Positions 5,957 to 22,891 of a stretch of DNA of 23,472 bases are shown here, in pieces; the first letter of the stretch is position 1; each line of letters opens with the position of its first letter. Below the pieces are notes generated by a model. That model did no database searches and was not told the DNA's origin. It saw only the letters and a program-made list of their open reading frames with translations. Made by a program: the position numbers and the translations under genes. This stretch comes from Candidatus Baldrarchaeum yapensis (lineage in GTDB: Archaea > Asgardarchaeota > Baldrarchaeia > Baldrarchaeales > Baldrarchaeaceae), in the NCBI GenBank assembly GCA_016840465.1, contig JAEOSH010000032.1, positions 1-23,472 of the forward strand. The letters run 5' to 3'.

Positions 5957-7141
5957 TCACGCCTCGTGCACGAAACTCCATTTATCTCGCTCACTGTAAA
6001 TCTTGCGGAGTATCTCTAGGGCCAACTCCTCCGGCAAACTCAGAAATAAACGCGCCAGATGCTTGCAAAACCTTCTCTCCACCGCGGTCCGCGACCAGTC
6101 AGCGCAGTTATGCACTATTCTCCTCTCCTTAACGTCCACAATTATCTTGTAGTCCCTGATCTGCGCCTTCACCATATCCCTGTCCGCCCTCAAAATGTTA
6201 ATATCCCTGTCGCTTATCCTACGTGCCCTCGCAAGTCTCTTCCAGTCGATGAAACTCGAAAGTAGGGACTCCAGGTTCGCGGGAACCACCTCTCCCGTAA
6301 CTGTCATCTGAACGGGCGCCTCCTCTCTACAGCCCGCCACTCCCTTCTCCATCGTTTCCAGCATCCTCCTCTCAACTTCCGCCTGGTATCCATTCTGCAT
6401 ACCAAGCAAACGGAGAAGTTGAAGCGCGTTCAGCGCCGCATAACCGTAGAAGTGATTGTTAAACAGGCAGTAAAGCTCCGCAACCCTCGACATCAGGTCT
6501 CTGACCCTCGGAACCCACTCTTGCAACTCCTCTTCCTTATAACGATAATTGTACCACGGGTGCCTCCCGCGGCCATGCCACCTTATATAAGCGATGTCCG
6601 ACGTCACCTCTATGATCGCTGGTAGGAGGGGCTCATCCACAATCACGTACGCCACCCCGTAGTCTCTCAGCAGATCAAATACCTCCCCACAGAGCCAAGA
6701 CTCCTCCCGAAACTCCACGGCGTACTCAAAGCCGGAGGGGAGAATTTCGAAGAACTTCTTGAGCAGGGGGGCGCTCTTCCTCAGAGAGGGGGGTAACTGC
6801 AAAAGTAGGGGTCCCAACTTCCCATCATCACGAAGCGGTCTCATCAATTCTATGAATTTCTCGAGAGACCTTCTGTTCTCCACGCTCGCCTCGAGTTTCC
6901 TCTTATGGGTTATTTCCCTTGGCACCTTGGCGGTGAATTTGAACCCCGCGGGCGCGCTGCGCTGCCACCCTCTCACCAGCGCTGCGGTCGGGTAGCTGTA
7001 GAACGTCGAGTTTATCTCAGTTGTGTTGAAAACCTTCGTGTAGAAGGAGAACATGCGGTCCTCGGACGGGTAAAATATCCCGACCCACTCCTTGTATGAC
7101 CATCCGCTCGTTCCGACCCGTATCGCACCACTCAACTGCAC
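5957..7141 (-). CDS. DUF72 (YecE-like TIM barrel) protein fused to a C-terminal SWIM-like zinc finger
   Basis: IRVGTSGWSY, TTEINSTFY, GPLLLQLPPS, AVEFRE, YIRWHG and LFNNHF are DUF72 motifs. The C-terminus has HNC-x12-CKH. The start is probably GTG 7141 or TTG 7135, not 7222. Confidence 0.88.
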   Translation of the reverse strand: MQLSGAIRVGTSGWSYKEWVGIFYPSEDRMFSFYTKVFNTTEINSTFYSYPTAALVRGWQRSAPAGFKFTAKVPREITHKRKLEASVENRRSLEKFIELMRPLRDDGKLGPLLLQLPPSLRKSAPLLKKFFEILPSGFEYAVEFREESWLCGEVFDLLRDYGVAYVIVDEPLLPAIIEVTSDIAYIRWHGRGRHPWYNYRYKEEELQEWVPRVRDLMSRVAELYCLFNNHFYGYAALNALQLLRLLGMQNGYQAEVERRMLETMEKGVAGCREEAPVQMTVTGEVVPANLESLLSSFIDWKRLARARRISDRDINILRADRDMVKAQIRDYKIIVDVKERRIVHNCADWSRTAVERRFCKHLARLFLSLPEELALEILRKIYSERDKWSFVHEA

Positions 7142-7280
7142 GCACCAAAATGGAAGTCTTTTCCGTAAATTGAGTATTGGGGTTGAGAAATTAAACAATT
7201 GGGTCTCAACATCGTAATACAAAAATACTCATTAGCATCTAGGGGAATGCCAGTACGAACCCGTGCCGGGAGGTAAAAGG

Positions 7281-7631
7281 ATGAAGGCATGGGAAATAAG
7301 CGAACTCCTTAAGGAGCAGGGCTACCGGTTGCTCGATATTTACAGGACGAAAAACGCGGACATACTGAGGGTGCAGAATATCTCCACCGGTGAGGTCTTT
7401 AAGGTGCGAATTTCGGGCTTTAAGGAATCGGTAACCCCTGATCAACTGCTGGAACTCCTCAAAAAGCAGAGGATAAAATTGGAGGACGACAAGAAGGCGT
7501 GGCTCGAGAGAATTAAGAAAAAGATGAAAAAGGTCAGAATAGTCGGAAGGAAAGAAGAAAGGAAGAAGGAGGAAAAAGCGGAAGAGGTTGAGAGGAAAGA
7601 GGAGGAAAAAGAGGCGGGCGAGGAATCATAG
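7281..7631 (+). CDS. Hypothetical protein with a Lys/Glu-rich tail
   Basis: SD GGAGGT lies 7 nt before ATG 7281; a compact N-terminal domain is followed by a highly charged low-complexity tail. Confidence 0.7.
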   Translation: MKAWEISELLKEQGYRLLDIYRTKNADILRVQNISTGEVFKVRISGFKESVTPDQLLELLKKQRIKLEDDKKAWLERIKKKMKKVRIVGRKEERKKEEKAEEVERKEEEKEAGEES

Positions 7632-8006
7632 CCACGCGTCTATCACATTTATCGGAACTGCGCGCAACACTATGGCGTACTCCCCATTGCTTATCGCAAC
7701 GCGGTTTCCATGGCCAAGAACCCAGAAAATGTTTCTCCCGAGAACCTTTTCCGCCCTCCTCACAAGATCGTACCCCACCGCGAGCCCATCCCTCAGCAGA
7801 ACAACATACTCCTTTCCGTCAATCTTAACCCTCGCGCTTTCACCTCTCCCCACAAACCTGATTCCCCCGCGCTTCAGCAATGCGACAACCTCCTTATGAG
7901 GCATTAATATGGCGTCTTCTCGAAGTGAGTAGATCCCGCCGTTTGCGCATTTCACCGGCGCGAATATTCTTCGAAACCTCTCAACACACCTGATATTCTC
8001 TCGCAT
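7626..8006 (-). CDS. Hypothetical protein, last gene of the minus-strand chain
   Basis: ATG 8006 overlaps the upstream stop (TGATG); 126 aa ORF with no recognised family. Confidence 0.65.
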   Translation of the reverse strand: MRENIRCVERFRRIFAPVKCANGGIYSLREDAILMPHKEVVALLKRGGIRFVGRGESARVKIDGKEYVVLLRDGLAVGYDLVRRAEKVLGRNIFWVLGHGNRVAISNGEYAIVLRAVPINVIDAWL

Positions 8007-9544
8007 CACTTCATCCCTACCCTCATTGCCTCCAGCACTGCTTCCTCTACGTCCTTTACGGTCACCTTCCTTCCCCTAACCCTCTCACGAAGTATTCTCT
8101 CAATGGCAAATCTCACACGTGACCTTATGAAGTGAGGTACTCTTGCCAGCACGCCGTTCAGCCGCTCTAACGCCTCTTCCTCATACATTAGGCCTTCCTC
8201 CGACCGGATATCCTCTCGTGGATGGCTCCGCTTGTACGCATACACAAACTTGACGGTTTCCTCCCACACCCTGTGGAGAAGATAGGAGACCCCACGGATC
8301 CCCCTGAACGGCGCATCTAGGTATCGACTTGAGAAGTACCTCGCCGGTTCACTTGCTGGTATGAAACTACCAATACCGGCCTCCTGCGAAGCCAAGTACT
8401 CCGTGAATCCACCAAATACCATGAACGGGGACGCGCTCTTCAGGGAGTCGACTATCTGCTCCTTCCCCGGCATGACTAGAACCTTAGTGCCACCAAGTTC
8501 CCGTTCTCTGAAGAACCCTACAAGCGCTTCATGCATGCCGTTCTTTATTCCAATGACCGCAAGTGACATCCATAGATCATCCGAGAGAACCCTCGAGAGC
8601 CCATAGGCCAGCGTGTTCGATCCGAAAACCGCAACCGGGCTGTCCGCAATAGTGAACCCCGAAATGTCCATGTCATCTATGACACTCGCGCCCCAAACCC
8701 TCATTTCCCGAGCCAAGAACTCCTCCACGCGTTTCGAAATACTAGGGAAGTACTCCTTCAACCCTTCGAGAAACTCCATCGTTCCCTCGATGCCGAACGG
8801 CACCTCGGTGTAATAGGCGATGCCGAACTCCTTTTCCAGAAAGCGTGCAGCACTTTCTCCAAAGTCGTAAGGATACATTAGTATCGTGAGATCCGCATGG
8901 GGTAGATTTCTGAAATCCTCGATGCCCGCATTCGCAGGGACTATTGCGTTTATGCGCAGATCCACGCCTTTAAGGAGCCTCAAGGTCTCCAGCAGGTCGG
9001 CTCTCCAGTTGAATATCCCCTTTGTTGGCCCAATTATGTTAACACTCGGCTGTTTTCCGTCACCACCTCCACTAGCCTTTTGATCGCAGAACTCCCGTGT
9101 CAGCACATAAAGAGCCTTATCTATTCCGTCATAAAACGTATCACGGAGGGTGTTCGCATAAATGGGCACCACCGGAACCTCCACATCGCACCTCAGGCCC
9201 TCGACCTCGCACTGGAGTATATCCTCACTGATGAGCAGTTCGGTTACGTTAGTCGTAGTCACAACTAAAAGCTCGGGGTTGTAGTTCTTTACCGCCTCTT
9301 TCACGGCCCTCCTCAGTCTATCAAGCCCCCCATGCGCAACGTCAGTCGCCAGCAGGCTTGAAGTAAAAATGTGGCACCCCTGCTTTTCCGCAATCACAAA
9401 CTCGGAGACCGCGTAGTTTGAGCATCCCGACGGACTGTGAATCACGGGAATTGCCCTCTTCATCGATAGTACCACATCACAGATCCCCTGGAAACTGGAC
9501 GATATTACCTCCTCAGAATACAAGCTCCGGCTCACCGATACCAT
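8006..9544 (-). CDS. Nitrogenase-like oxidoreductase catalytic subunit, BchB/BchZ-type, with a C-terminal PCP_red-like domain
   Basis: VIHSPSGCSNY, NPELLVVTTTNVTELL and VNIIGP...D..E..RLL.G..L.IN are component-1 motifs. The C-terminal YEEEALERL...VPHFIRSRVRFAIE...VTVKDVEEA resembles the PCP_red domain. The start is ATG 9544 or GTG 9535. Confidence 0.85.
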   Translation of the reverse strand: MVSVSRSLYSEEVISSSFQGICDVVLSMKRAIPVIHSPSGCSNYAVSEFVIAEKQGCHIFTSSLLATDVAHGGLDRLRRAVKEAVKNYNPELLVVTTTNVTELLISEDILQCEVEGLRCDVEVPVVPIYANTLRDTFYDGIDKALYVLTREFCDQKASGGGDGKQPSVNIIGPTKGIFNWRADLLETLRLLKGVDLRINAIVPANAGIEDFRNLPHADLTILMYPYDFGESAARFLEKEFGIAYYTEVPFGIEGTMEFLEGLKEYFPSISKRVEEFLAREMRVWGASVIDDMDISGFTIADSPVAVFGSNTLAYGLSRVLSDDLWMSLAVIGIKNGMHEALVGFFRERELGGTKVLVMPGKEQIVDSLKSASPFMVFGGFTEYLASQEAGIGSFIPASEPARYFSSRYLDAPFRGIRGVSYLLHRVWEETVKFVYAYKRSHPREDIRSEEGLMYEEEALERLNGVLARVPHFIRSRVRFAIERILRERVRGRKVTVKDVEEAVLEAMRVGMK

Positions 9545-10802
9545 CCCCCTCGAACTTATATTCCAAGAAGGGATCACAAACCAGGTTGAATCTCCTCATA
9601 AAATCACGGAACCTCCTAACCTTCCCATCCAGCTTCCTGACAAAGTCTCTACCCGATTTTATTACACCAAGAAATCCGGGCACGTCCATATTTGCGATGG
9701 AAATCCTCGAAAAGAACCATGCGCCCATGTCGATTGCGAGCGATCCCATGATCCAGTTGCCGATCACGAAATCGAACTCCTCACCAGATACCCTTTTAAT
9801 CGTCTCGTACACGCTCCTCTCTTGATGGAACTCCCCACCGTTCTCCTCTATGAACGATACGTTCTCCCTCGCCAGTGGGGGAGCATACGACGTGAAAACA
9901 ACCGTCTCCATTCCTAGAGATACTGCTATCGACGCAAGGTTCACCTCCCTGCCCAGACTCGACGCTATCAGCACTTTTCTCCCAGACAACTTATCCTTCA
10001 GTTTCTCAACCTCATGCTCCCACCTGTCGAACCTCGTATCTACCTTAACACCCGTAACATCGGAAACCCTCTCGACCGCGAGCCTCGTTGGAGCAGTTCC
10101 ATATGGAAGAACATCCACGTAGGGGATCCCAAATCTCCTCATGATCTCCTTCAGCGCCTCCTCCGCAAAGACGTGCAGTGGTATGTTTACTCCGGCAAGA
10201 GGTGCCCTAATGATTTGATCTATTGGTGAGCCCTCGGATGACACGATGGCGGAATTCAACTTCATCGGTTTAAGAATCTCGGACATGTGGACCCTCCCGT
10301 GGAGCGTGGCATATCCCAATATGTTGAATCGGGTTGCTTCCGCCCCCTCCTGCGCGTCCATTAGGTCAATAAGCGACTTCAGCGCCTCTCCAGCCCCCAT
10401 GTACTCAGCCCTGCAGTTATATCCGGCCTTCACAACAATGACGGGAACTCCCGTCTCTTCGGATAGTTGCTCCGCTACTGACATCAGATCCTCGTTTATT
10501 GTGAGAGACGTGCATCCCTCAATTATTGCCACGGCCTTGGGCCTCTTTCTCTCGATTAACTGCCTAATTGCCTCGTATACCTTATCCACCGCGCCGAATA
10601 TAGCCTCCCTTTCATTAAACACCGTCCCCGGAGTGTAAAGAGGGGATCCCAGACGTGCGACTGAGATGTGACAACGCAGGTTTGCAACACAGTCGCGTGC
10701 CGCGTGTATGTAAACCAGCAATCCGTTTACCTTTGACAGAAAGAATGTCGCATAGAAGGTGGAGCACATACCCTCGGGTTGAGGCTCAAAATATCCTCTC
10801 AT
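9513..10802 (-). CDS. Nitrogenase-like oxidoreductase catalytic subunit, BchN/BchY-type
   Basis: Cys13 (EGMC), Cys38 (HAARDC) and Cys97 (IEGCT..I.EDL) with spacing 25 and 59; 429 aa; ATGA overlap with the Fe-protein gene. Confidence 0.85.
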   Translation of the reverse strand: MRGYFEPQPEGMCSTFYATFFLSKVNGLLVYIHAARDCVANLRCHISVARLGSPLYTPGTVFNEREAIFGAVDKVYEAIRQLIERKRPKAVAIIEGCTSLTINEDLMSVAEQLSEETGVPVIVVKAGYNCRAEYMGAGEALKSLIDLMDAQEGAEATRFNILGYATLHGRVHMSEILKPMKLNSAIVSSEGSPIDQIIRAPLAGVNIPLHVFAEEALKEIMRRFGIPYVDVLPYGTAPTRLAVERVSDVTGVKVDTRFDRWEHEVEKLKDKLSGRKVLIASSLGREVNLASIAVSLGMETVVFTSYAPPLARENVSFIEENGGEFHQERSVYETIKRVSGEEFDFVIGNWIMGSLAIDMGAWFFSRISIANMDVPGFLGVIKSGRDFVRKLDGKVRRFRDFMRRFNLVCDPFLEYKFEGDGIGEPELVF

Positions 10803-11692
10803 ACCACCTCGACCCCCGCGTACGTGAACCTCAAAAGATCTCCATATGGAATCGGGGTGGGTACCACCTTCAGGTTATTCGAAAGGACCTTTTCCGCGAG
10901 TTCCCTGAAGATCCTCACCGCATTAGAGTCAGGGAATGCTTCGAGAACGGTTTTGCCCAGCTTATCCGCCTCCAGAACCTCAGGCATTCTGGGCAAGATT
11001 CCTATGACGTTGGCGCCCATCAGAGATGCAAACTCCTCTATTATCTCCCTCTCCCCAGGCACGCCCCGCATGTTGCCTATCAATCCCCCGAGCGCAACCC
11101 CATGCCTACTATACCTTCTTATTGCCGCACATAGGTTGTTTGCCGCATACAGTGACATGAACTCTCCCGATGTTACAATGTAAACCTCACGGGCGAACCC
11201 TCTCTGCATGGGCTGTGCAAAGCCCCCGCAGACGACATCTCCTAGGATGTCATAGATCACCACATCGATCTTCAGCTCCTTGAAAACGTCCTTTGCCCTC
11301 AGGAACTCAAGCGCCGTTATTACGGCTCTTCCTCCACAACCCACGCCCGGCTCGGGCCCACCGCTTTCGGCACAAAAGACCCCGGCAAATCCCTCCACTA
11401 TCACCTCGTTCAGATCCACCCTGTCGAAGTCCATGTCCACTTCGCGCAACTTGTCCAGGATTGTCGGGATATGGTTGCTACCGGTTAGTAGCCGAGTGCT
11501 GTCCCTTTTGGGATCACACCCCACTTGGAGTACTCGGAGCCCCCTTAATGCGAACGCCGCAGACAGGTTGCACGCTATTGTCGACTTTCCGATACCCCCT
11601 TTCCCGTAAATTGCAATCGCCCTTGGCTCTTTCTCCTCAAACCTCACGGGTTTGATTCTCCTTCTGAGAATAACACATGGGGACTCACACAT
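10799..11692 (-). CDS. NifH/BchL/BchX-family Fe protein (ATP-dependent reductase)
   Basis: YGKGGIGKST, QVGCDPKRDST, ESGGPEPGVGCGGR and YDILGDVVCGGFA; both 4Fe-4S Cys are present. The start is probably ATG 11692, after GGAGGTG. Confidence 0.95.
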   Translation of the reverse strand: MCESPCVILRRRIKPVRFEEKEPRAIAIYGKGGIGKSTIACNLSAAFALRGLRVLQVGCDPKRDSTRLLTGSNHIPTILDKLREVDMDFDRVDLNEVIVEGFAGVFCAESGGPEPGVGCGGRAVITALEFLRAKDVFKELKIDVVIYDILGDVVCGGFAQPMQRGFAREVYIVTSGEFMSLYAANNLCAAIRRYSRHGVALGGLIGNMRGVPGEREIIEEFASLMGANVIGILPRMPEVLEADKLGKTVLEAFPDSNAVRIFRELAEKVLSNNLKVVPTPIPYGDLLRFTYAGVEVV

Positions 11693-13253
11693 CTCCATCA
11701 CCTCCCGACTTTTTACCCTTATACTCATAATACGAGTGAAGAGCGCGAGAACCCTTCTCGGTGAGATAGTACACCCTCCTGACCAGCTTCCCTATCTTCT
11801 GCTCAGTCGGGTGGACGTAACCCTCCTCCTCCATCTTCTGAATGAGGCGAGCACAATACGGAACGTCAAGGTCGAGAGTTGTCGCAATGTTGAACAGAGA
11901 TAGGCCGGGGTACTCCTTAATGAGATTTAGAACCTCCGCGGCGCTGTCCGCATCTGCTCCAAAGTCCATTAATAGAAGGGGAACGGGGGGATGCCCGGAG
12001 CAACTTTGCACGACGACCTCCGGGAACAAGTACGTGACCCGAGAAAGTATCTGTTCGTCGGTGGATGCTGGGATCTCCGCTAGGGATCTGTCCACCCTAA
12101 CCAAAAACGGTTCGGAGAAACCATATCTGAACACCACTGCATGATACGGCTCCAAGTTCTTAAGATAGGACATCTGGTACAGCCTTCTTCTGCCCTCGGG
12201 CGCATGAATTCCTATTGCGAATTCCCTCAGGTTCAGCACGTCCGCAACTATCCTCTGCTCGATCCTCGTGCCCACCTTAAATGATATACGGTTCCCTATC
12301 TTTGCAAAGAGTGAGGGGTGGACAAGTCCCGGTGACGAGGTTGTCAGGAGAACAAAATGCCCTCTGGAACGGAGTTCATCCAGATATCCTAGGAGTTCGA
12401 CTGCGCTCTCATGTCTGGTGCCCCTTGAAAACAAATGGTGACACTCGTCCAGCAACAAGACGATATTCTCACGAAGACCCGAGGCGAGGATTTTAATCAT
12501 GAATATCACCTCTACGAGACTTAAAACCTTGGATGAAAGTTTAGGAACCTCTATAACGACGCATCGCTCGGCGAGTTCTCTGATGCCGATTGTCTGCTCC
12601 CGGCAAAACATTCTAGCAAGAGGAGGTACCGTTAAAACTTGGAGTTCTTTTTCTAATGCTGAGATGAGGTATGCAACCCTCGGACCCTCGGCTCCGGATA
12701 GCGATGACAGTCTCTCCCTCAATTGGAGGAGAGTCGGCGTGGGATCCTCCTCATATGCATCATATAGAATTTTGAGAAAGATCCTCCACGCATCGGGGCT
12801 CATCTGAAGCACCGCCGCAAAGATATTCGCAACATGCAGTGCATAGTCCTCCCTTTTTGCGCCTTCGGTGTCGAGGGGGTTTAACACGAACGTTTCGCCC
12901 AAACGCAGGACCACAACCTCGGAATTCAGTCCGTGGAGCCTTCTGTACTCGGCATCCGACGTTACCACTATGAACCTGTAACCTCGGTCATGAAGCCCTG
13001 AAAGAATCTTCGCGCAGAGAGCATACCTTTCGATGGAGGTTCCCGCCATTACTAGCGTTCCGTGTCTCAATTCCTCAAGTGTAAAGCCCGCCGCCCCACA
13101 TGGTTCAAAGTTCTCTGTTTCTATGATCTCGCCTACCGCAACGTCGCATGAGACGTGAGAGGGGGTGACATATTCTACCGGAAGTTCCGGCGGCATCATC
13201 TTCACAGAGAACGTCGGAATTTGAAAGAACCTCAAAACCTCATCTCCGCTCAT
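11685..13253 (-). CDS. HerA/VirB4-like protein with a degenerate Walker A and a C-terminal winged-helix domain
   Basis: HGTLVMAGTSIERY at the Walker A position, FIVVTSDAEY, LNPLD, Walker B LLLDECHHLF and VLLTTSSP. The C-terminal LSLFNIATTL...KMEEEGYV...YYLTEKG is a wHTH. The start ATG 13253 overlaps the upstream stop (TGATG). Confidence 0.8.
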   Translation of the reverse strand: MSGDEVLRFFQIPTFSVKMMPPELPVEYVTPSHVSCDVAVGEIIETENFEPCGAAGFTLEELRHGTLVMAGTSIERYALCAKILSGLHDRGYRFIVVTSDAEYRRLHGLNSEVVVLRLGETFVLNPLDTEGAKREDYALHVANIFAAVLQMSPDAWRIFLKILYDAYEEDPTPTLLQLRERLSSLSGAEGPRVAYLISALEKELQVLTVPPLARMFCREQTIGIRELAERCVVIEVPKLSSKVLSLVEVIFMIKILASGLRENIVLLLDECHHLFSRGTRHESAVELLGYLDELRSRGHFVLLTTSSPGLVHPSLFAKIGNRISFKVGTRIEQRIVADVLNLREFAIGIHAPEGRRRLYQMSYLKNLEPYHAVVFRYGFSEPFLVRVDRSLAEIPASTDEQILSRVTYLFPEVVVQSCSGHPPVPLLLMDFGADADSAAEVLNLIKEYPGLSLFNIATTLDLDVPYCARLIQKMEEEGYVHPTEQKIGKLVRRVYYLTEKGSRALHSYYEYKGKKSGGDGDV

Positions 13254-14008
13254 CACGATCCCCCTTCTACCCCTCTGACCACGCATAACACCGCCTCCCT
13301 CAGTTCTTCACCACGCAAAACCCTCAACTTTGTGTGAGGGAAACCGCTCAGGAACAGGGACTTTATCTTTGAAACCCTCTCCCTGACCCTTTCCGCGCAC
13401 TCCACGAGACCTTTCTCCGAATTACCCGTTTCGTATCTGGTCAATAGAAGCATACGACATCTCCAGACGCCTCCGATGGATGTCAGCAAACTCTCCCTCG
13501 CCTCTGACATCTTTCTCTTCAGTTTCTCTTTGTACTCATCCGATAATTCGGGCTCCCTCAAAGCCTCCTCCGGGCTCAGCGGCTCCTGGATGAACACATA
13601 AACAAGTGGTATCCTCTCCGCATACGCGGACCTTATGAAAAATTCAAAGTTCCCCCGCACACCTATCGGTATCCTCTCAAGTTCCAGACCGCCCACAGCA
13701 ATTACTTTTGACCCCTGTCTGAAAAGTATCACATCCTCGATAATCTCCCCCTGCGGCATCCCGTCCGTACCGGAGATGGCAAACTTGCCACTCCTATCAT
13801 TGATTATGCTGTTAATGACGGATGCCGATAAGACGCCGAACAGTACACTTATTATAAGCGCGCTTGGACCCGGAAGCACATTCTCCAGCGCGTAAGACGC
13901 CAGGATGAACATCAGCAACCCTACCCATACACATACCAACCTGTAATTGGAAGAGCTCCCGCCACTATTCGGTTTGCGAATATGAATCCTACCCGCTACT
14001 CCTTCCAC
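13253..14008 (-). CDS. Membrane protein (2 TM plus a soluble domain), possibly VirB3/VirB4 N-terminal-like
   Basis: Two hydrophobic helices near the N-terminus are followed by an alpha/beta domain ending in KLRVLRGEEL. The gene is coupled to the HerA-like gene. The family assignment is tentative. Confidence 0.7.
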   Translation of the reverse strand: MEGVAGRIHIRKPNSGGSSSNYRLVCVWVGLLMFILASYALENVLPGPSALIISVLFGVLSASVINSIINDRSGKFAISGTDGMPQGEIIEDVILFRQGSKVIAVGGLELERIPIGVRGNFEFFIRSAYAERIPLVYVFIQEPLSPEEALREPELSDEYKEKLKRKMSEARESLLTSIGGVWRCRMLLLTRYETGNSEKGLVECAERVRERVSKIKSLFLSGFPHTKLRVLRGEELREAVLCVVRGVEGGS

Positions 14009-14288
14009 CCGCCACCACCCCCACTAACACAACCATCATCAGGGAGAGAATCAGCGCGTTGACGGACAGCGATAGGAGAAGATCCGTGGATACGGTGGGC
14101 CGCACAAGTAGGTGCATGAAGTCTATGACCAGCACAAGCGCGATTAGCAAAGATGACTTGAGCGGACCGTACCTGCCTCTCGATCTAATTACCGTTATTA
14201 ACAGCCATGCGCTACCAAACAACCACAGATTCTCCAGCACGAACTTGAACAGCATCACATAAATTACGAGTTCCATGAAACTCGCCAT
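13989..14288 (-). CDS. Small hydrophobic membrane protein (about 3 TM)
   Basis: 99 aa and almost entirely hydrophobic; SD GGAGGGG; overlaps both neighbours. Confidence 0.7.
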   Translation of the reverse strand: MASFMELVIYVMLFKFVLENLWLFGSAWLLITVIRSRGRYGPLKSSLLIALVLVIDFMHLLVRPTVSTDLLLSLSVNALILSLMMVVLVGVVAGGRSSG

Positions 14289-14662
14289 CCCATCCCCTCC
14301 TTCTCACAAGCGTGCGCCATCTCGCCCACTATCCACCTCAACAAGAGTTCAGACCTCGTGAAAATACGCACCCTGACGGCATTGTCACCTGCCGGGAGAA
14401 CTTTAACACGAACAGGATCGTTAGCTCTTCCATTCGTCACTCCGTCTGCACCCAAGTTTTTCACTACACTTTCGACAACGCCCCTCACCCTTTCCGCATC
14501 GGCTCCCCAGATGGTCAGTTCCGTCCTCCGATCGTAAACGCATATTTCGCTCAAAACATCATTAGGGCGCTTGGTACTTCCCCTGATCGATCTTACGATG
14601 AGTAAAAACATCACGGCGGAGTAAAGTGCAATTGTCAGGTTAATCGCGTCCACTTCCACCAC
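14264..14662 (-). CDS. Small membrane-anchored protein (1 N-terminal TM)
   Basis: SD GGAGGTG before the GTG start; N-terminal hydrophobic helix; overlaps the helicase stop. Confidence 0.7.
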   Translation of the reverse strand: MVEVDAINLTIALYSAVMFLLIVRSIRGSTKRPNDVLSEICVYDRRTELTIWGADAERVRGVVESVVKNLGADGVTNGRANDPVRVKVLPAGDNAVRVRIFTRSELLLRWIVGEMAHACEKEGMGWRVSWNS

Positions 14663-16766
14663 TCAGCACCTCCAGCAGTTCTCCCGCAAGGTGAGAGGTG
14701 TTTAGATACCCGCACAGTTCGCTTATTGCTCTGAGGGCATGGAGGGACCACCTGATGTAATCTATGAGTTCTTCGAAGTCGCCGGGCGGAATCTCGAATC
14801 TCACCGGGATTTCCTCCACGCTTATTCTCCCTTCATAAACTTCCAGAAGTGCGGCATGGAGTTGCGGAGGTACTCTTCTGCCCTCCTCGGATAAGAAACC
14901 GCAGAATCTTCTGATGAAGTCATAAACGTCTCCGCTGAACCTGCTGGAAAGAGCGTGCATCGCAACCGCAGTGCGCGGTCTGAGGTACAATTTTATGACC
15001 AGCTCGCCGAACCTCGTGACCTCGAATGCGGTAATGTCGGCGTCCTCAATCTGCTTGACCAGGCCCCCACGCATTAGGAAGTCCAAAGCGCTCCCCATGC
15101 CCAGTCCATCAAGAACTATGCCGATGCGATCTCGAAGATTTTCTGCAACATACATTGCGAGGCCTACCAGATGCCTACACGGGGTTGTACGTCTCATCTT
15201 CGAGAACTCAGAGCACTCGCACCAGGCGCCGTTACGTGAAATCGTGCACATTCTCCCATTCACAATTCCCTCGATCCTCCTACCATCTGCCTTCGTGATC
15301 ACGACTTCTCCACTGATTTCGTGAGATTCGTCCCAGTCGAGGAACCTCGTTTTGCCCGTTAAGAGTATTTTCCTTGAAATCTCAATTGCGGGTCTCTTGC
15401 GCCCCCAAAGTGTGCTTCTAAGGAACTCCACCAGATCGTCGATTGTTGCGCCTTCCGAGTCGTATATTGCAACGAGGAGCAACTCCTCCATAAGGTCTCC
15501 GTTCTCCAGCTGGCTCTCCACATTCTCATACCTAGGAGTCTGCCGCCCATCACGGAACAGCACACTTCTGAGAAGTTCTCTCTCCTGATCGGTGTACACG
15601 AGTATGTAGGCATGTCCACTGCTGTCAAATCCGGGCCTCCCCGCCCTCCCCACTATTTGGAATATCGTGTTTGCGCCTAATCTCCGGTACTCCATCCCAT
15701 CCGGCGTGCGCCTCACTACCACCAAGTCCCGCAGAATCACATAGCGTGCGGGCATGTTTATTCCCGCCGAAAGGGTGGTGGTGCACACGAGAACCTTCAA
15801 TAGCCTTTTCCTGAACGCGAGTTCTATTGCCCTTCTCAAATTCAGAGAGAGGCCCGCGTGGTGAAAGCATACCCCGGAGGGGGCCACTCTGAAGGCCCTC
15901 CTTGCAAGGGAACTCCTATCTCCCCCCGTAGCATTATCCAGAATTTTGCGAATGCGCATTCCAACCTCATCGTCCACGTGGTCCTTTAGGATCTCGCCGA
16001 GTTTTTCGGCAAGACTCTCGGCATCCCTCCTCCTTGCAACGAATACCAGCACCTGTCCCTCCTCTGAACAGCGCTCCCTCAGAAATTCCTTAATGAAGGC
16101 ATTCTTTTGCCGCGTGACCGTGATGCTTATCTCGAGCGGCACCATCCTAGCATGCGACTCTATCAAGGCACAATTCAACCATGACGCTATCTCATGTGGG
16201 TTTCCGATACTTGCGCTCAGCGGAATCATCTGGATATCGTTTTTGCGGGCCCTGAGCCTAAGCCTTGTCAGTATGCCTTCCAGCCGTGGACCCCTTTCAG
16301 GGTCACTGAGCATGTGCACCTCATCGATGACCACCGTTCTCAGCATGTCGAGAACGGCTGGGATTTGCCTCGTCATGGAGTCGAACTTCTCGTAGGTCAG
16401 TATCATAACATCGGCGTCGAGGATGTCTGAGGGGAATCTGTAGAAATCTCCCGTCGACATCACTATCCTGAGCGAGCGCGTCCTGCAAATCTCAACCATA
16501 TCATCGTACTTCTCGTAGGCCACAGACTTCAATGGAACTATATACGCCGCCTTTCCCCCGCTCAGTGCGCTGTTTATACATGCAATCTCGCCCAGGAGCG
16601 ACTTGCCCGATGCGGACGGCGAACAAATCATGACGTTGCGTCCTCTAAATACTCCCAGTTTCACTGCCGTGGACTGCACCGCGTTGAACCCCATCACTCC
16701 CCTCGCTGTCAGTATTTCGGCAAGTTCCCCGTCTAATCCGTAATTTACCGCTTCCTTAACCCTCAC
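14640..16766 (-). CDS. Ski2/Hel308-like SF2 DEAD/DEAH-box helicase with an inserted SWIM zinc finger
   Basis: SPSASGKS, IDEVH, LSASIGN, FHHAGL, TTTLSAGINMPA and GRAGRPGFD helicase motifs, plus CEC-x12-CRH (SWIM). The start is probably GTG 16766. Confidence 0.92.
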   Translation of the reverse strand: MRVKEAVNYGLDGELAEILTARGVMGFNAVQSTAVKLGVFRGRNVMICSPSASGKSLLGEIACINSALSGGKAAYIVPLKSVAYEKYDDMVEICRTRSLRIVMSTGDFYRFPSDILDADVMILTYEKFDSMTRQIPAVLDMLRTVVIDEVHMLSDPERGPRLEGILTRLRLRARKNDIQMIPLSASIGNPHEIASWLNCALIESHARMVPLEISITVTRQKNAFIKEFLRERCSEEGQVLVFVARRRDAESLAEKLGEILKDHVDDEVGMRIRKILDNATGGDRSSLARRAFRVAPSGVCFHHAGLSLNLRRAIELAFRKRLLKVLVCTTTLSAGINMPARYVILRDLVVVRRTPDGMEYRRLGANTIFQIVGRAGRPGFDSSGHAYILVYTDQERELLRSVLFRDGRQTPRYENVESQLENGDLMEELLLVAIYDSEGATIDDLVEFLRSTLWGRKRPAIEISRKILLTGKTRFLDWDESHEISGEVVITKADGRRIEGIVNGRMCTISRNGAWCECSEFSKMRRTTPCRHLVGLAMYVAENLRDRIGIVLDGLGMGSALDFLMRGGLVKQIEDADITAFEVTRFGELVIKLYLRPRTAVAMHALSSRFSGDVYDFIRRFCGFLSEEGRRVPPQLHAALLEVYEGRISVEEIPVRFEIPPGDFEELIDYIRWSLHALRAISELCGYLNTSHLAGELLEVLSGGSGRD

Positions 16767-17631
16767 GTTCCGCACCTCCCCAAATCCTTAGAATGGATTG
16801 CAGTATGCTTTCTCCGATCCTTGCATATCTGCCGTTGGATTTTGCGAAGAGCAATTCTGAGAGTTTGCTTCCAGATCCGTGGCCGTCGGCCGCTCTCAAG
16901 AACATCACATGAAACTCGGAGTCCCGATCACATCTCATGAGCAGGAACGTGGAACTGGGGTGGGCGAGCATTTCTTCAACATCTATTGGCACCACTCGCA
17001 GGTTCATAAGATTATCCAAATCGATCTCCGCCTCGCTATAATCGGATCTGCCATCTACGATTTCCAGTATCATCTCCATTATTGTCGAAATATTCCGATT
17101 TCTATCGACATCTCGTATTAGGAGGGCCTTCGGCCGGGCGCATCCGTCATTCCTTATCAGCATCACTTCTGAGTTCAGCACTCTCGCGATCGAAAGAACC
17201 TCCTCTACGGAGGCTCTGGATTCTACCGGTATCACTAGCTTTCCGTGGTCTCCTCTCATCAAGATCGCAATTCCATTCCGTGCAATCAGTACTGTTTTCC
17301 TTCGGGACATCTCGTACACTATAACATACGCGACGGTGAGGACCAGGGGCAGGAGGATAAGCGGGTTTTCCCGTATGAGGAGGAACGTTATGTGAACGGA
17401 GAACAACAACATTATCAGCGCCGGTAGCCTGCGAGAAGATGCATACACGCTCGTTCCAAAGATCATCACCACATAGAATAGAATTATCGGAAGATGCGCG
17501 CTCCAAATTCCAAATAACGCCAGTCTTGTCAGCATAATAAGCGATACGATTCCCTCCTCCACCACCGACAGCAACCATAGGATGAAGACTGCCCCCAGCA
17601 TGTACCTGATGATCACGTCATTCGTCGCCAT
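16756..17631 (-). CDS. Membrane protein (about 4 N-terminal TM plus a soluble domain)
   Basis: Hydrophobic first 110 aa; SD-like GGGGGTGG before ATG 17631; overlaps both neighbours. Confidence 0.72.
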   Translation of the reverse strand: MATNDVIIRYMLGAVFILWLLSVVEEGIVSLIMLTRLALFGIWSAHLPIILFYVVMIFGTSVYASSRRLPALIMLLFSVHITFLLIRENPLILLPLVLTVAYVIVYEMSRRKTVLIARNGIAILMRGDHGKLVIPVESRASVEEVLSIARVLNSEVMLIRNDGCARPKALLIRDVDRNRNISTIMEMILEIVDGRSDYSEAEIDLDNLMNLRVVPIDVEEMLAHPSSTFLLMRCDRDSEFHVMFLRAADGHGSGSKLSELLFAKSNGRYARIGESILQSILRIWGGAEREG

Positions 17632-18280
17632 TTTCGCCACCCCCTAACGAGTAATTTATCCGCACTCCCGCGCTCCTCCCCGATAATTTCTCAATGACCG
17701 CCACTCTATGACCTCCGGCCGTGGAATCCCTCTCTAAGCGTATGACCGTACGTGCCAGCTTCTTCAGGGGTAGTAACAATCTCTGGTGGTGCAACTCGGA
17801 GGAGTTGAATTGGGCCAGCGCGATAATTGAGGTTCCTCTCCTGAGCAACAGCACGAGTATGGGGATCATTTCCTCTAAAACTTTAAACGCAGCCTTGAAC
17901 CCGTACCGGTAAATATTCCACCTTATCAGTGAGGAAATCGTGTCTATCACTATCAGAATGCCCGAGCCGGATGCTGTGGAACGAATGCCATCGAGTATTG
18001 AGAGCAACCGTGAAACTTCCGGGTTTCCAGTTATGACTGTTATTCTTCTGAGCAATTCGGGATTCTTCATGAAGCGGCCACGCAGGGCGCGGGGATCCAA
18101 CTTCAAATCTACATCTAGGTACATGGTCCTGATGTTCATCCGTGCCGCATGTATCGCCATTCTAAGGGCAATCATCGTTTTCCCGGTTCCGGACTCCCCG
18201 TATATCATGCAGATCGACGGATGAGCTATCCCTCCGTCCAGAATCTCATCAAGTTCCGGAACTCCCGTGCTGAGGACCAT
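17618..18280 (-). CDS. RecA-superfamily ATPase (RadB/aRadC-like, no N-terminal domain)
   Basis: LSTGVPELDEILDGGI, YGESGTGKT and LIVIDTIS; about 220 aa. Confidence 0.88.
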   Translation of the reverse strand: MVLSTGVPELDEILDGGIAHPSICMIYGESGTGKTMIALRMAIHAARMNIRTMYLDVDLKLDPRALRGRFMKNPELLRRITVITGNPEVSRLLSILDGIRSTASGSGILIVIDTISSLIRWNIYRYGFKAAFKVLEEMIPILVLLLRRGTSIIALAQFNSSELHHQRLLLPLKKLARTVIRLERDSTAGGHRVAVIEKLSGRSAGVRINYSLGGGENGDE

Positions 18281-18281
18281 C

Positions 18282-21200
18282 CTAGCCGCCCACACCAAGC
18301 CTCCTCACCACTCCTACCAGTTTTCTCTTGAAGAGGATGGAAGAACTGGCGATTATCAGCGCGGGGGTTGCTATCACGGCAATCTCTATAACCTCCCAGT
18401 TCTGCTCAGTAGACGGTGCTTCTCTCTTCATTTCAGTGGTGTGGAGGGTTTCATTTCCAACCTCTTGTTCGGTACTCGACTCATTCGTCTGCGTAGTAAA
18501 GTTGCTCTCTGCTACCTCTCCGTTCTGCTCCGTTTGAGGGGTTTCCTCCCTCATCACTCGTACTGTTACGAGGGAGGACGTCGCGGGAAGAAACGGATGG
18601 GAAACCTTCACGAGAAACGTGTAATTTCCGGCATTTAAGTTGCGCAGCGGAATTGTCACCTGATATTTGCCAGGGGCGGTTTGCATTCCGCATGAGGATA
18701 TATTGTACCCGATTATTGATGCGTTGACCGTGCAGTCGCCGAGCAATAGACCGTTATACGTTACGGACACATTTAGCATGACATATTCCGTGCCATTGCC
18801 GCGAATACTTATCACTCCGTTGCCCTGTACCGTTATCGAAATTTCGGGAGGTAGTGCTGTGCTTGATGAGTTCTCAACGAGCGGAAGCACTCCCAAGGTT
18901 TTCAATGCCCTCACAACGATCATCAATTCGACCAGATCCCGCAGATCTGGGTTTCTCAGTCTGGAGAGACAGTAATATAAAGAGGCATTCAGTTTGACAA
19001 AGGACTCTCGAAGGAAGGACTCCTCCCGGGCGCGCGTGGAATTCAGCGTTGAAATTATTAGCACCTTCAGTGCAGATGTGAGGGGGTCTTGGCACCTGCA
19101 CGATACAACATATCTTTCGAGCGATGTGAGGTTCACGCCTCCCGCAACCCCTATTGTCATAATTATTTCTGTGGCGAAATACTCCGAGATCAGGGGTGAG
19201 GACAAAACTGGCGGGATCCACTCGCTCTCTGGGAATGCGCCCGTCTCGTTCTGGTGGGTTCTCAGGTATTCGAGGAGTAATCCGGTGAAGTTATAGAGGT
19301 AGTCGAAGAGCGCGTCCATCTCCACGCACGTGAGGACCGCCATTGTAGCGCTGTAGATCGTGACATATCTTTCATCGGCGGGCACGAATGTCCATTTTCT
19401 GGTACCGCCGGCCAGTTCTCCGTCGGTAACCCTACACCTTCGGATCTTTTCCATCAATTCATCCCTATATTCGAACTCCAGCAAGAGAATGTTGTAGGAC
19501 CTGATTCCGAAGAGTGCGGTCCCAACACTGGGACTTCCGAGGCCGGTGTCGATTGCAATATCAAAGGGCATCCTCATGAATCGGGTGCCGGAGGATGAGG
19601 AAGTCCCGAAGAACAGGCATATTGGGAAGTCCCTGAACCCGTCCCCGGACATGTATGTGTTCTTCAAGAACTCGGCAAGGGAAGTTTTGTTCACGGCATC
19701 CAGCATCCCAATATCGCTCAGAGTTTCGATCACAAAGTACGTCGTTGCAAGGGAACCCTCCAGTTTGCTATATGGGAGGAATCCCCCTTTTCCTCTCCAG
19801 CAGGACTCCAGGTACGACCTTACGGCTCCAATGTTCACCGCTGAGAGAACATTGTATGCGCGAAGGGCGAGAAGCGCCGCCGCGGTGTCGAATACGGTGG
19901 GAAATATTATGTCATCGGATGAGAATCCGCCGATCTCCGTCTGTCTCTCCATTATCCAATCGATAACTCTTGCTAGGAAGATCCTGTCCAGTATTTCCGA
20001 TATTTTGCTGTCGTTGAACCTCCGTAGCCTTTCGACGCAGAGGACGGCGTATGCGTTCTGATAAAGCGTATCATATGATGTGACGTTGAACAGTTCATCC
20101 AGCAGGTAGCAATCCACGAGCCATTCGGCCGTGGCTGAAAGGTTCACGATATCGAGTACATATTCGGGGCCCAGAACCTCCGATAGGGTCAGGAGGGTGT
20201 CTAGTGCGAGGAAGGACGACTCGAAGAATCGATACGCGTAGTAACCGTATGCGAACGATGGAATTCCCTCCTTGGGCAGAAAAGCACCATAGTATTCGGA
20301 CGATTCGTCGGAGACCTGCAACCTCTTTATATAGCTAACGACGGAAGCCGCCATCGTTCCGTTGACTTCACCGAGTATCATGAGCGCCTTTATGGCGGCC
20401 CATGTAGCCTTAACCTCCATGGTTCTATCTATCGTCGTTTCGTAGGCAAATTTTCCGGAGGTGCTGTTATATGCGGAGGAAAGGAAACATGCGACCTTGC
20501 TTTTATTTACTAAGTCGAGGGCGCCGAGCATTTTCAACAACATGATCACAAGGGCCGTTGTGAGAACCTTCGACTCTGCCGGGGGTTCCTGGTAAAAGGA
20601 GCCCTCATCGTCATGATATAGCGATAAAAGCCAGCTAACGGTGGCGTTCTTATCGATTAGGGAGGAGTTAATTCCGCAGGTCTCCATGCAGAGCCATCCA
20701 TAGAACGTAGATACTATGTCGGGTTCCGAGAGACAGGGGAAGCCTCCGCGCCCATGCCATTGATCTAACTGCAACTTTGCGAGAGATTGTGCCAGTAGGT
20801 CGATGATGGTTTGTTCTCTTAACCAGAACAGCGAATTTATGAGGAAATACTTCCCCTCAAGTGAAAGATCGCCGGGTTTTTCAACCCCCACCCACAGAAC
20901 CCTAACATCTCCTCTCAGCGACACGGCTGATGCCGCGAGCGTGGAGTTTTTCATTATAAGGATCGGAGGCGTGGTGTTATTCAGCAGATCGGAGGCATTC
21001 GCCACCACGCATTCGGACCTAGGATTAACGATGTGCATATGAGCTTTGGACCCGCATATGTCAAATGGTGCCCTGAATATCGAGAGGTTACGCGCGTAGG
21101 AGGGAATGTAGAGGGCGTCGGGGGCGGTTATGCGTAACGGGGAGGTTGAGGTTACGAGCAACGTTATGGATTCACCGAGAAGTAGGGTTGGGGCCGAGAT

Positions 21201-21518
21201 GTTAAGGGCTTCTAAACTTTGGGATAGAGGACGGGGGATCACAATAATGTTATCGGAGGAGGCGTATTCGGTGAGGTTCTCTGGACTCGTTATTAGTGAT
21301 GATATTCCAAACTCTGAGAAGAAGCGGGCCCATGTGGCCGCGTAAGGGTCGCTGGTATTCTCGGATAAGATTACAACTTCCGGTGCCCGGTTGTTTTCGA
21401 CCACCGCCCGCTGTGTTATACTGTTTGCGGGAGGGACTTCATTGGCAATAATGAGTATCAATATTAGAGAGATCACCGATATTACATGAAATTTAAACCG
21501 ATGTTTTACGGATTTCAT
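18282..21518 (-). CDS. Large secreted, C-terminally membrane-anchored glycoprotein with prenyltransferase/squalene-oxidase (alpha/alpha toroid) repeats
   Basis: N-terminal signal peptide; about 9 GGF/GSF/GAF...T..A...L..LG repeats; Ig-like beta region; Thr/Glu-rich linker; C-terminal TM followed by a basic tail; about 30 N-x-S/T sequons. Confidence 0.82.
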   Translation of the reverse strand: MKSVKHRFKFHVISVISLILILIIANEVPPANSITQRAVVENNRAPEVVILSENTSDPYAATWARFFSEFGISSLITSPENLTEYASSDNIIVIPRPLSQSLEALNISAPTLLLGESITLLVTSTSPLRITAPDALYIPSYARNLSIFRAPFDICGSKAHMHIVNPRSECVVANASDLLNNTTPPILIMKNSTLAASAVSLRGDVRVLWVGVEKPGDLSLEGKYFLINSLFWLREQTIIDLLAQSLAKLQLDQWHGRGGFPCLSEPDIVSTFYGWLCMETCGINSSLIDKNATVSWLLSLYHDDEGSFYQEPPAESKVLTTALVIMLLKMLGALDLVNKSKVACFLSSAYNSTSGKFAYETTIDRTMEVKATWAAIKALMILGEVNGTMAASVVSYIKRLQVSDESSEYYGAFLPKEGIPSFAYGYYAYRFFESSFLALDTLLTLSEVLGPEYVLDIVNLSATAEWLVDCYLLDELFNVTSYDTLYQNAYAVLCVERLRRFNDSKISEILDRIFLARVIDWIMERQTEIGGFSSDDIIFPTVFDTAAALLALRAYNVLSAVNIGAVRSYLESCWRGKGGFLPYSKLEGSLATTYFVIETLSDIGMLDAVNKTSLAEFLKNTYMSGDGFRDFPICLFFGTSSSSGTRFMRMPFDIAIDTGLGSPSVGTALFGIRSYNILLLEFEYRDELMEKIRRCRVTDGELAGGTRKWTFVPADERYVTIYSATMAVLTCVEMDALFDYLYNFTGLLLEYLRTHQNETGAFPESEWIPPVLSSPLISEYFATEIIMTIGVAGGVNLTSLERYVVSCRCQDPLTSALKVLIISTLNSTRAREESFLRESFVKLNASLYYCLSRLRNPDLRDLVELMIVVRALKTLGVLPLVENSSSTALPPEISITVQGNGVISIRGNGTEYVMLNVSVTYNGLLLGDCTVNASIIGYNISSCGMQTAPGKYQVTIPLRNLNAGNYTFLVKVSHPFLPATSSLVTVRVMREETPQTEQNGEVAESNFTTQTNESSTEQEVGNETLHTTEMKREAPSTEQNWEVIEIAVIATPALIIASSSILFKRKLVGVVRRLGVGG

Positions 21519-21918
21519 AATATACACTCTCCTGGGACGGTAATGCTTCTTTTAACCGCGATATGTTTCGGGATATTCCATCAGACCCACTAATTGCTTG
21601 GTATTTTACCAGATGCGCCGCCTGTCGACTTTTTTTCACAAGTGGGGTTGATGCAGGGGGTTTATATAGGGTACTACAATCATGTTACTGTGCTGACGAA
21701 AATACGTGATTTTACCGCGTTCCGGTTATATACAGTTTTATTTTTGAAACTTGAGTAAAAAATTTGAAATTTTGTAATATTATGCATTTTATTCGGTATA
21801 ATTTGATGCCGGAAGACGAGACCCGGTGTACCATTCTTGCAAAAATTTCAAAAACTGCGAGAGAGTGGTACGCGAGGTTTTGCAATTGTTCTTGCAGCAT
21901 GAAGTTGCATGCCAACCC

Positions 21919-21927
21919 TTTATATTT
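21919..21927 (+). promoter_or_regulatory. Putative TATA box for the zincin-like gene
   Basis: TTTATATTT lies about 25-35 nt upstream of in-frame GTG 21950 and ATG 21959. Confidence 0.45.
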
Positions 21928-21958
21928 ATGGGCTGAGAAAGATAAGTTGGTGGACGGG

Positions 21959-22891
21959 ATGGACGTAAGCAGGATTTTCGAGGAAAACATGCTGGAAGCG
22001 GGAGAGTACGAACCCGAGGTAAAATCTCCGGAGGCCTTGAAATTCAGGGAGGAAAGAGCAATATTAGCACTGAAGAAACATGTCAGATCCATATGGGGAG
22101 GCGTTTCGAGGGAGCAGGTTCTCTCCGAGAGGTACCTTCATGACTTTCTGAGGAGAGCCATCTCCTTCCTTGCTGGTAAGACCTTTGAAGCGATAAAGGA
22201 TACACAAGTTCTGCCGATGCCCCCCACTCCGCCGGCCGCGGTGAAGGACCCGCCGCTGGCAGAAGTCGAGGAAGAGAGATGGGTGTTTTCGGGTGTTCAC
22301 CTAGCCGGGATTGTTGATCCGTTTTCCATCTACATCCCGTATCATGCGGATATCGAGAATTGGGGGATCTACATCAGGGCGCGGAGGGTGGTGGAGGACT
22401 TTCTTGCGTTCTGCGAGGAGTTCGAGGTGGAGGAGGTTGGGGTTCCGCTGGTGTTCACGATTTACCTCAACACCGTGATGACACACGCGATGATGCATCA
22501 CATTGTGGAGGACATAGCTACACTGCTGGAGTTTGGCAGCGGGAGTTCGCGGTACCCCCTGCTTAAGAGGGAGGAAGAGGAAGGCTTTTGCGAGTATATG
22601 GCATTTACGCGGAAGATTGCATCGACTAGGTTCACGAAGCTATTCCCCGCCGTGATGCGGTGGAGGGCCGGGGAGTATGGAGAAATATTTGCGAAAGTTA
22701 CTTCGGCGCTGTACTTTCATTGGAGGAGGGCGGAGGATCCCGTGTACAGGCCCCGCATTACGCCGGAGGTATCAAGGGCGCTGGGTCCATTCTCGTTTGT
22801 CGTTAAGTTCTCTCACAGGATAGAGAGCGCCACCGTTCTGAAGGTCAGAGGAGATGAGGTGAACCGCAGGGTCTTCGTCACGGAAAGGTGA
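21959..22891 (+). CDS. Zincin-like hypothetical protein with HAxxH in place of HExxH
   Basis: YIPYH...WGIYI, THAMMHHIVE and the downstream EEEEGFCEY give a gluzincin-type arrangement. The start is reassigned from 21764. Confidence 0.7.
   Translation: MDVSRIFEENMLEAGEYEPEVKSPEALKFREERAILALKKHVRSIWGGVSREQVLSERYLHDFLRRAISFLAGKTFEAIKDTQVLPMPPTPPAAVKDPPLAEVEEERWVFSGVHLAGIVDPFSIYIPYHADIENWGIYIRARRVVEDFLAFCEEFEVEEVGVPLVFTIYLNTVMTHAMMHHIVEDIATLLEFGSGSSRYPLLKREEEEGFCEYMAFTRKIASTRFTKLFPAVMRWRAGEYGEIFAKVTSALYFHWRRAEDPVYRPRITPEVSRALGPFSFVVKFSHRIESATVLKVRGDEVNRRVFVTER

Follow-up and report, generated by a model that had tools for sequence, protein, structure and literature searches.

An ATP-dead VirB4/CedD derivative encoded among recombination genes in Asgard archaea

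Introduction

Why would an archaeal chromosome keep membrane parts of a secretion system in the midst of recombination genes, and what might they do there? The question is raised by a seven-gene cluster (11685–18280, minus strand) of Candidatus Baldrarchaeum yapensis, which lies in a window comprising one entire contig of 23.5 kb (23,472 nucleotides) from a 2.27 Mb, 96% complete genome (G000). Four membrane proteins with, by hydropathy, about four, one, three and two transmembrane (TM) segments (294, 132, 99 and 251 residues, respectively) are interleaved with a RecA-like ATPase, a helicase and a HerA/VirB4-like protein. An initial annotation made from the sequence had described this arrangement, which open reading frames (ORFs), hydropathy and family profiles bear out, and had likened it to the Ced importer or to a minimal type IV secretion system (T4SS). 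Ced (CedA, CedA1, CedA2, CedB and CedD in the Sulfolobales) and Ted (in the Thermoproteales) are DNA import systems (PMC9905601, PMC11823120, PMC11868833), and the parts of the two are not recognisably similar in sequence and need not be encoded together (PMC9905601).

Asgard archaea are the closest archaeal relatives of eukaryotes, and DNA exchange among them bears on the origin of sex; were the function proposed below correct, a dedicated genetic-exchange apparatus would have been present in the lineage ancestral to eukaryotes. A literature search found no paper describing the cluster. It has defined parts and folds, a lost P-loop and a conserved linkage, and is a T4SS/Ced-derived membrane scaffold that has no motor, carries a winged helix of DNA-binding type and stands beside recombination enzymes and surface-protein elements. 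It points to a membrane-located machine predicted to handle DNA.

A split CedB/CedD-like protein with a lost P-loop

The HerA/VirB4-like protein (533 residues; 11685–13286, minus strand) has CedD as its best ATPase-family match (NF053655, E 7e-5), and CedD is the sole ATPase family matching its clade. Its profile matches HerA structures, and its end matches MarR/PadR winged helices, a C-terminal element conserved in the family. At the Walker A site, however, the protein reads AGTSIERY instead of GxxGxGK[ST]. The GK[ST] signature is absent from 141 of 162 aligned sequences, that is, from every clade member aligned, the other 21 being outside relatives and the other HerA proteins of G000. Walker B is present in the window's protein (LLDECH) and lost in most homologues. 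In a tree built by a quick method and midpoint-rooted, every dead sequence falls on one side of a single branch (SH-aLRT support 100), consistent with one ancient loss of Walker A, and the active sequences pulled in by the profile score highest as CedD. The nearest relative of the window's protein groups with a protein labelled Baldrarchaeota. With a ratio of nonsynonymous to synonymous substitution rates (dN/dS) of 0.07–0.13 between relatives, the 533-residue protein is a predicted pseudo-ATPase retained by purifying selection, and across two phyla selection has preserved a secretion-type ATPase as a pseudoenzyme. Because Walker A is lost throughout the clade, the protein cannot pump DNA. A search for related loci with this protein as query returned nothing.

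The missing N-terminal part is encoded immediately upstream. The 251-residue protein (13253–14008, minus strand), suspected in the initial annotation of being a split VirB4 N-terminal part, does prove to be one. Its AlphaFold2 model (mean confidence, pLDDT, 74) consists of a TM hairpin and an alpha/beta domain corresponding to half of a VirB4 N-terminal domain (N-domain); Foldseek places TrwK/VirB4 chains at ranks 1–9 (E 3e-3 to 4e-2), a second look with VIA gives Z 11.6, and the Atlas neighbours belong to CedB-like, TraC-like and VirB4 clusters. A wide VIA search with the same model gave no match at Z of 8 or above. In many homologues the two parts are fused in one protein, and in Lokiarchaeia proteins of about 1290 residues two TM-plus-domain units precede the ATPase fold. 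CedB and CedD each consist of a TM region, one half of a VirB4 N-domain and a HerA-type ATPase (PMC11868833); the 251- and 533-residue proteins therefore share this architecture and are a split CedB/CedD-like protein, the fully split form of which is new here. The profile of the 251-residue protein matches 85 of 201 Asgard genomes. Lokiarchaeia-type genomes (G011, G148; loci L047, L055, L061 and L062) hold up to three or four dead-VirB4 paralogues of 1290 residues, some of them next to TPR proteins or a zincin-like membrane protein and not to recombination genes.

Walker A is intact in at least eight other HerA-family ATPases of G000 (on contigs C12, C46, C64, C83, C89, C42, C98 and C79; loci L066, L071, L073, L074 and L099–L102), two of which adjoin Mre11/Rad50. 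The NurA-HerA-Mre11-Rad50 end-resection operon resembles the cluster in placing a HerA-fold protein among recombination genes. A role for the 533-residue protein as a NurA partner was nevertheless rejected: the NurA-HerA operons are separate in G000, and the protein has no HAS barrel, is membrane-linked and has lost its P-loop.

A second VirB4 N-domain and its likeness to EccE

For the 294-residue protein (16756–17640, minus strand), the positional orthologue does not sustain the role of a polytopic channel. The gene at the same position in a related locus (L033, 8869–10020; 383 residues) matches it at phmmer E 9e-7, and the model of this orthologue has four TM helices followed by two alpha/beta subdomains, which together make up the whole N-domain of TrwK with the ATPase absent (Foldseek E 2e-7; VIA Z 17.8 over TrwK residues 15–397, 238 residues, root-mean-square deviation 3.9). 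The fold is thus that of a TM-anchored VirB4 N-domain, and therefore not that of a CedA/VirB6 channel. It was established on the orthologue's model: the window's own copy is about 90 residues shorter, with similarity chiefly in the TM part, and may be degenerate. In G025 the family profile also picks out an active VirB4-like gene, in its N-terminal half.

Next in rank to TrwK for the same model are EccE-type chains of type VII systems (Z 12.2 and 10.4; Foldseek E 1e-4). As both are top matches of one model, the VirB4 N-domain and EccE appear to be structurally related, a link of which no description was found in the literature searched; this VirB4-N-domain/EccE fold of the four-TM family is new here. 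Profile–profile comparison gave no link between the 251- and 294-residue families, which are connected by structure only. Neither of the two models listed any CedA1, TedC or VirB2 chain. Complex prediction with the L033 orthologues of both proteins scored 0.00; this was taken as no verdict and is not used as evidence.

Recombination genes and conservation of the cluster

The remaining two genes of the cluster belong to recombination. The 711-residue helicase (14640–16775, minus strand) is Hel308-like (NF002654, E 5e-97, below the equivalog cut-off) and retains every superfamily 2 motif (Walker A, DExH and motifs III–VI) together with an invariant SWIM-type CxC..CxH zinc site; it has no C-terminal HhH domain, and by these profiles and motifs would be a Hel308 paralogue. 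Its nearest relatives carry the labels Odin-, Hel-, Loki-, Thor- and Hodarchaeota, and G000 has two further Hel308-like genes (on C12 and C61). The RecA-family protein (17618–18280, minus strand) is RadB-like (TIGR02237, E 9e-14, 51.8 bits against a cut-off of 172): its N-terminus has no HhH, Walker A (GESGTGKT) and Walker B are kept, and the architecture fits RadB. The canonical RadA of G000 lies on another contig (C86), and further contigs carry two FEN1 genes, XPD and NurA-HerA-Mre11-Rad50 operons (C12 and C46). The two FEN1 paralogues are 3 kb apart (L067, 8291–9331 and 12601–13641), each matching the FEN1-like family that accompanies the cluster in other Asgard lineages.

The cluster is conserved as a unit, a point in favour of the initial annotation. 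Beyond what chance would give, the order of the seven genes is identical in L033, L021 and L094, and at least seven Asgard families have the genes in rearranged form, among them Freyarchaeia/Jordarchaeia-, Helarchaeota-, Thorarchaeia- and Lokiarchaeia-type genomes (class names of related genomes rest on source labels and genome features). The rearranged genes remain clustered, and a full-length RadA, a FEN1/XPG-like nuclease and an XPD helicase often accompany them. In all three genomes in which both copies could be located, the cluster's RadA is additional to the canonical one; extra RadA copies have been noted in some Asgard lineages with no context given (PMC12722695). The helicase lies within 20 kb at 15 of the 25 loci that were retrieved with the ATPase or its N-domain, in seven families, a count that is a description and no test because the kin are not independent; loci without it are mostly short contigs or additional Lokiarchaeia-type paralogues. 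All genes tested are under purifying selection (dN/dS 0.04–0.28 between relatives where synonymous divergence is unsaturated). In two Asgard families (L034, L035, L053 and L059) the cluster is flanked by a trio of roadblock, Arf-like GTPase and TPR-like genes.

The dead clade is not confined to Asgard archaea and includes proteins with the labels Bathyarchaeia, Thermoprotei and Methanomethylicota. A core of three genes, new here outside Asgard, is present in Bathyarchaeia, Methanomethylicia and Thermoprotei: at all four non-Asgard loci the dead ATPase, preceded by an N-domain gene or carrying a TM region at its own N-terminus, is followed within one gene downstream by a RadA- or RadB-like gene. 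At the Thermoprotei-labelled locus L103 (13398–15601), nre and cdvA lie just downstream of this core. As a candidate for DNA exchange the cluster is concrete and testable: few proteins are involved, and they occur in many Asgard lineages, including Lokiarchaeia, and as three genes in Bathyarchaeia and Methanomethylicia. Lokiarchaeia have cultured members.

Surface-protein elements and the small membrane proteins

The seven ORFs overlap their neighbours by 20–34 nucleotides (measured to the longest ORF start) and belong to a gapless minus-strand chain headed by a gene for a 1078-residue surface protein (18282–21518, ATG at 21518). This protein contains a prenyltransferase-type alpha-alpha toroid (PF00432, E 6e-24), with predicted TM segments at residue 9 (N-terminal signal/TM) and residue 1046 (C-terminal anchor). 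A surface-protein gene occupies the equal position in L033, L094 and L095, and in L044 and L092 homologues adjoin the cluster.

Pfam and NCBIfam give no match for any of the four membrane proteins within the cluster. For the 132-residue, single-TM protein (14264–14662, minus strand) an origin is apparent in the detached tail of a surface protein, an observation new here: a profile of the C-terminal anchor and cytoplasmic tail of M28-peptidase-like surface proteins of 870–1020 residues, which take this gene's position in other Asgard lineages, matches its positional orthologues at E 6e-11 to 4e-5. With a score of only E 0.05 against the tail profile, the window's copy owes its assignment to position.

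The 99-residue protein (13989–14288, minus strand), which the initial annotation had singled out as the pilin candidate, gains no support in that role: it has three hydrophobic segments, is missing from the minimal cores and gave no pilin match. Its gene immediately precedes that of the VirB4 N-domain, which is where VirB3/PrgI genes lie. The positional counterparts (118–174 residues), to which sequence comparison did not link it, have a charged loop separating the first TM segment from a C-terminal hairpin and are under purifying selection (dN/dS 0.18–0.28).

Relationship to known systems

With Ced and Ted the cluster has in common a chromosomal location, the combination of TM region, half VirB4 N-domain and HerA fold (here split over the 251- and 533-residue genes), and a tie to homologous recombination. 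Unlike them, it has lost its ATPase motifs (Walker A is gone from the window's protein and from each of the 141 aligned clade members), has gained a winged helix at the C-terminus, shows neither a CedA/VirB6 channel of six or seven TM segments at the locus nor a pilin match, and includes an extra, ATPase-free VirB4 N-domain protein as well as helicase and recombinase paralogues in the operon. Because two defining features, the active ATPase and the channel, are lacking in the locus, the cluster is not a member of Ced; it is made of the same ancestral parts. The suggested likeness to Ced or a T4SS thus stands as far as descent of the parts is concerned, and falls in respect of the motor, as the HerA/VirB4-like protein can no longer work as one.

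Compared with the R388 T4SS, whose VirB4/TrwK N-domain fold (PDB 7O41–7O43, 8RTD) occurs in the cluster once as a half (251 residues) and once whole (the 294-residue family), there is no VirB6, VirB8, coupling protein or relaxase to be seen, no working ATPase and no sign of a mobile element. A conjugative T4SS or mobile element was rejected: the window has no active VirB4, coupling protein, relaxase or integrase. The GC content of the cluster (about 50–54%) is like that of its flanks, and in most lineages it is a single copy at a conserved chromosomal cluster. EccE (ESX-3, 6LAR/6UMM; ESX-5, 7B9F) resembles the 294-residue family in having TM helices ahead of a shared alpha/beta fold and no ATPase, but no other ESX component or WXG100 substrate was seen, and the likeness to type VII systems is one of fold only.

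A proposed membrane scaffold for incoming DNA, and alternatives

We favour, at a probability of about 0.5, the reading that the operon encodes a domesticated, ATP-dead VirB4/CedD derivative acting as a membrane scaffold for recombination with DNA that arrives at the envelope. The 251- and 533-residue proteins would reassemble as a membrane-anchored ring, on which the 294-residue protein would either dock through its VirB4 N-domain or lie peripherally, as EccE does in type VII systems, and the 99- and 132-residue proteins would link this complex to the large surface protein making contact with another cell. DNA, probably received at such cell contacts, would cross or sit at the TM bundle, held by the winged helices, and it would be the intact Hel308 paralogue, not the VirB4 ring, that provides the pull. 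In Gram-positive competence the pull is supplied by ComFA, an analogue for this role of the helicase. The RadB-like protein, joined in some lineages by dedicated paralogues of RadA, XPD and FEN1, would then pass the strand to homologous recombination.

This reading is supported because two gene products have VirB4 N-domain folds, because the CedB/CedD architecture is present (with two such N-domain halves in one chain in the larger Lokiarchaeia proteins, and CedD as the sole ATPase-family match), because the helicase is linked at 15 of the 25 loci and a RecA-family gene at all four non-Asgard ones, and because the cluster's RadA is additional to the canonical protein and all genes are under purifying selection. 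Several points weigh against it. The chief gap is that no CedA/VirB6-type channel is identified in the operon, where the maximum is four TM segments. NF041796 and PF04610 gave no match elsewhere in the genome, TedA being detectable by profile–profile comparison only, and a CedA search across 201 Asgard genomes, for which Sulfolobus served as positive control, came back empty; this negative carries little weight, since Ted parts go undetected in searches of this kind (PMC9905601). Nor was a pilin matched by the 99-residue protein or in the genome (NF041797, PF04956, PF18895, PDB sequences and Atlas), short hydrophobic pilins being easily missed. In addition, minimal cores have no helicase alongside, several of the Lokiarchaeia paralogues have no recombination gene near them, and both the movement of DNA and its direction are predictions only. 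A more ambitious form of the same scheme, which we advance tentatively and hold to be somewhat short of an even chance, is that this is an old machine of TACK and Asgard archaea with one CedD/VirB4 origin, which would import DNA from contacting cells for homologous recombination through a passive ring, an adhesin and the power of helicase and recombinase, with no pilus and no secretion ATPase.

The alternative that survives best, although we consider it unlikely, is that the dead ring is an FtsK-like membrane tether for the cell's own chromosome (TM anchor, motor fold and winged helix), so that recombinational repair or resolution would take place at the membrane or at the site of division while nothing crosses the membrane. 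The failure to find a channel or a pilin would be expected of such a tether, and both the minimal core, reduced to N-domain, dead ATPase and RecA-family gene, and the proximity of cdvA and nre to one Thermoprotei locus fit it. What it leaves unaccounted for are a complete VirB4 N-domain and an EccE-like protein, which are membrane parts of secretion systems, and the large surface proteins or their detached tail at a fixed place in the operon, for which an internal tether has no need.

It is improbable that the genome encodes a true Ced/Ted-type importer in which the dead ATPase is an accessory subunit and the active ATPase, channel and pilin are encoded elsewhere, too diverged to be detected. 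The divergence and dispersal of Ced and Ted parts lend this some credence, as does the 99-residue gene at a frequent position of VirB3 or pilin genes. An active HerA-family ATPase of 848 residues on C79 groups near the CedD-like active sequences, but this gene has no membrane-protein neighbours. The active HerA proteins inspected (C12 and C46; C64, C83 and C89 by layout) are of the NurA-HerA type or have no membrane partners, and there is no CedA, CedA1, TrbL or TrbC profile match. Least probable by our estimate, and very much so, is a type VII-like machine for exporting or anchoring the giant surface protein, with the recombination genes merely co-regulated neighbours: the EccE-like fold, the frequent adjacency of surface proteins and a zincin-like membrane protein, and some Lokiarchaeia copies without recombination genes speak for it, but against it stand the RecA-family gene, which from Bathyarchaeia to Asgard adjoins more constantly than any other, the lack of a surface protein at those minimal loci and the conservation of the winged helix.

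Neighbouring genes

Downstream, the minus-strand chain extends without a gap into passenger genes at 7626–11728, comprising a NifH-like gene, two nitrogenase component-1-like genes and a gene for a 127-residue protein. The arrangement from surface protein to nitrogenase-like genes recurs unchanged in L033 and two genomes of this order, and MtrH and URO-D genes lie near the nitrogenase-like genes in L033. Membership of these genes in the cluster was rejected, as they are linked to it in L021 and L033 only and not in other lineages. They all score below the NifH, CfbC/CfbD and DPOR cut-offs and predict a nitrogenase-like reductase; for the component-1-like protein of 523 residues the best score is with DPOR BchB, and a PCP_red-like domain forms its end.

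Further along the window, a DUF72 protein with a long C-terminal extension is encoded at 5957–7222 (minus strand), and DUF72 genes also occur near the Methanomethylicia locus L104. Two convergent paralogues (3299–4573, plus strand, and 4580–5905, minus strand; 424 and 441 residues, E 1.5e-23) have no Pfam or NCBIfam match. A protein with a glutamate-synthase domain is encoded at 1254–2855 (plus strand), and at the opposite end of the window 21764–22891 (plus strand) holds an ORF of 375 residues.

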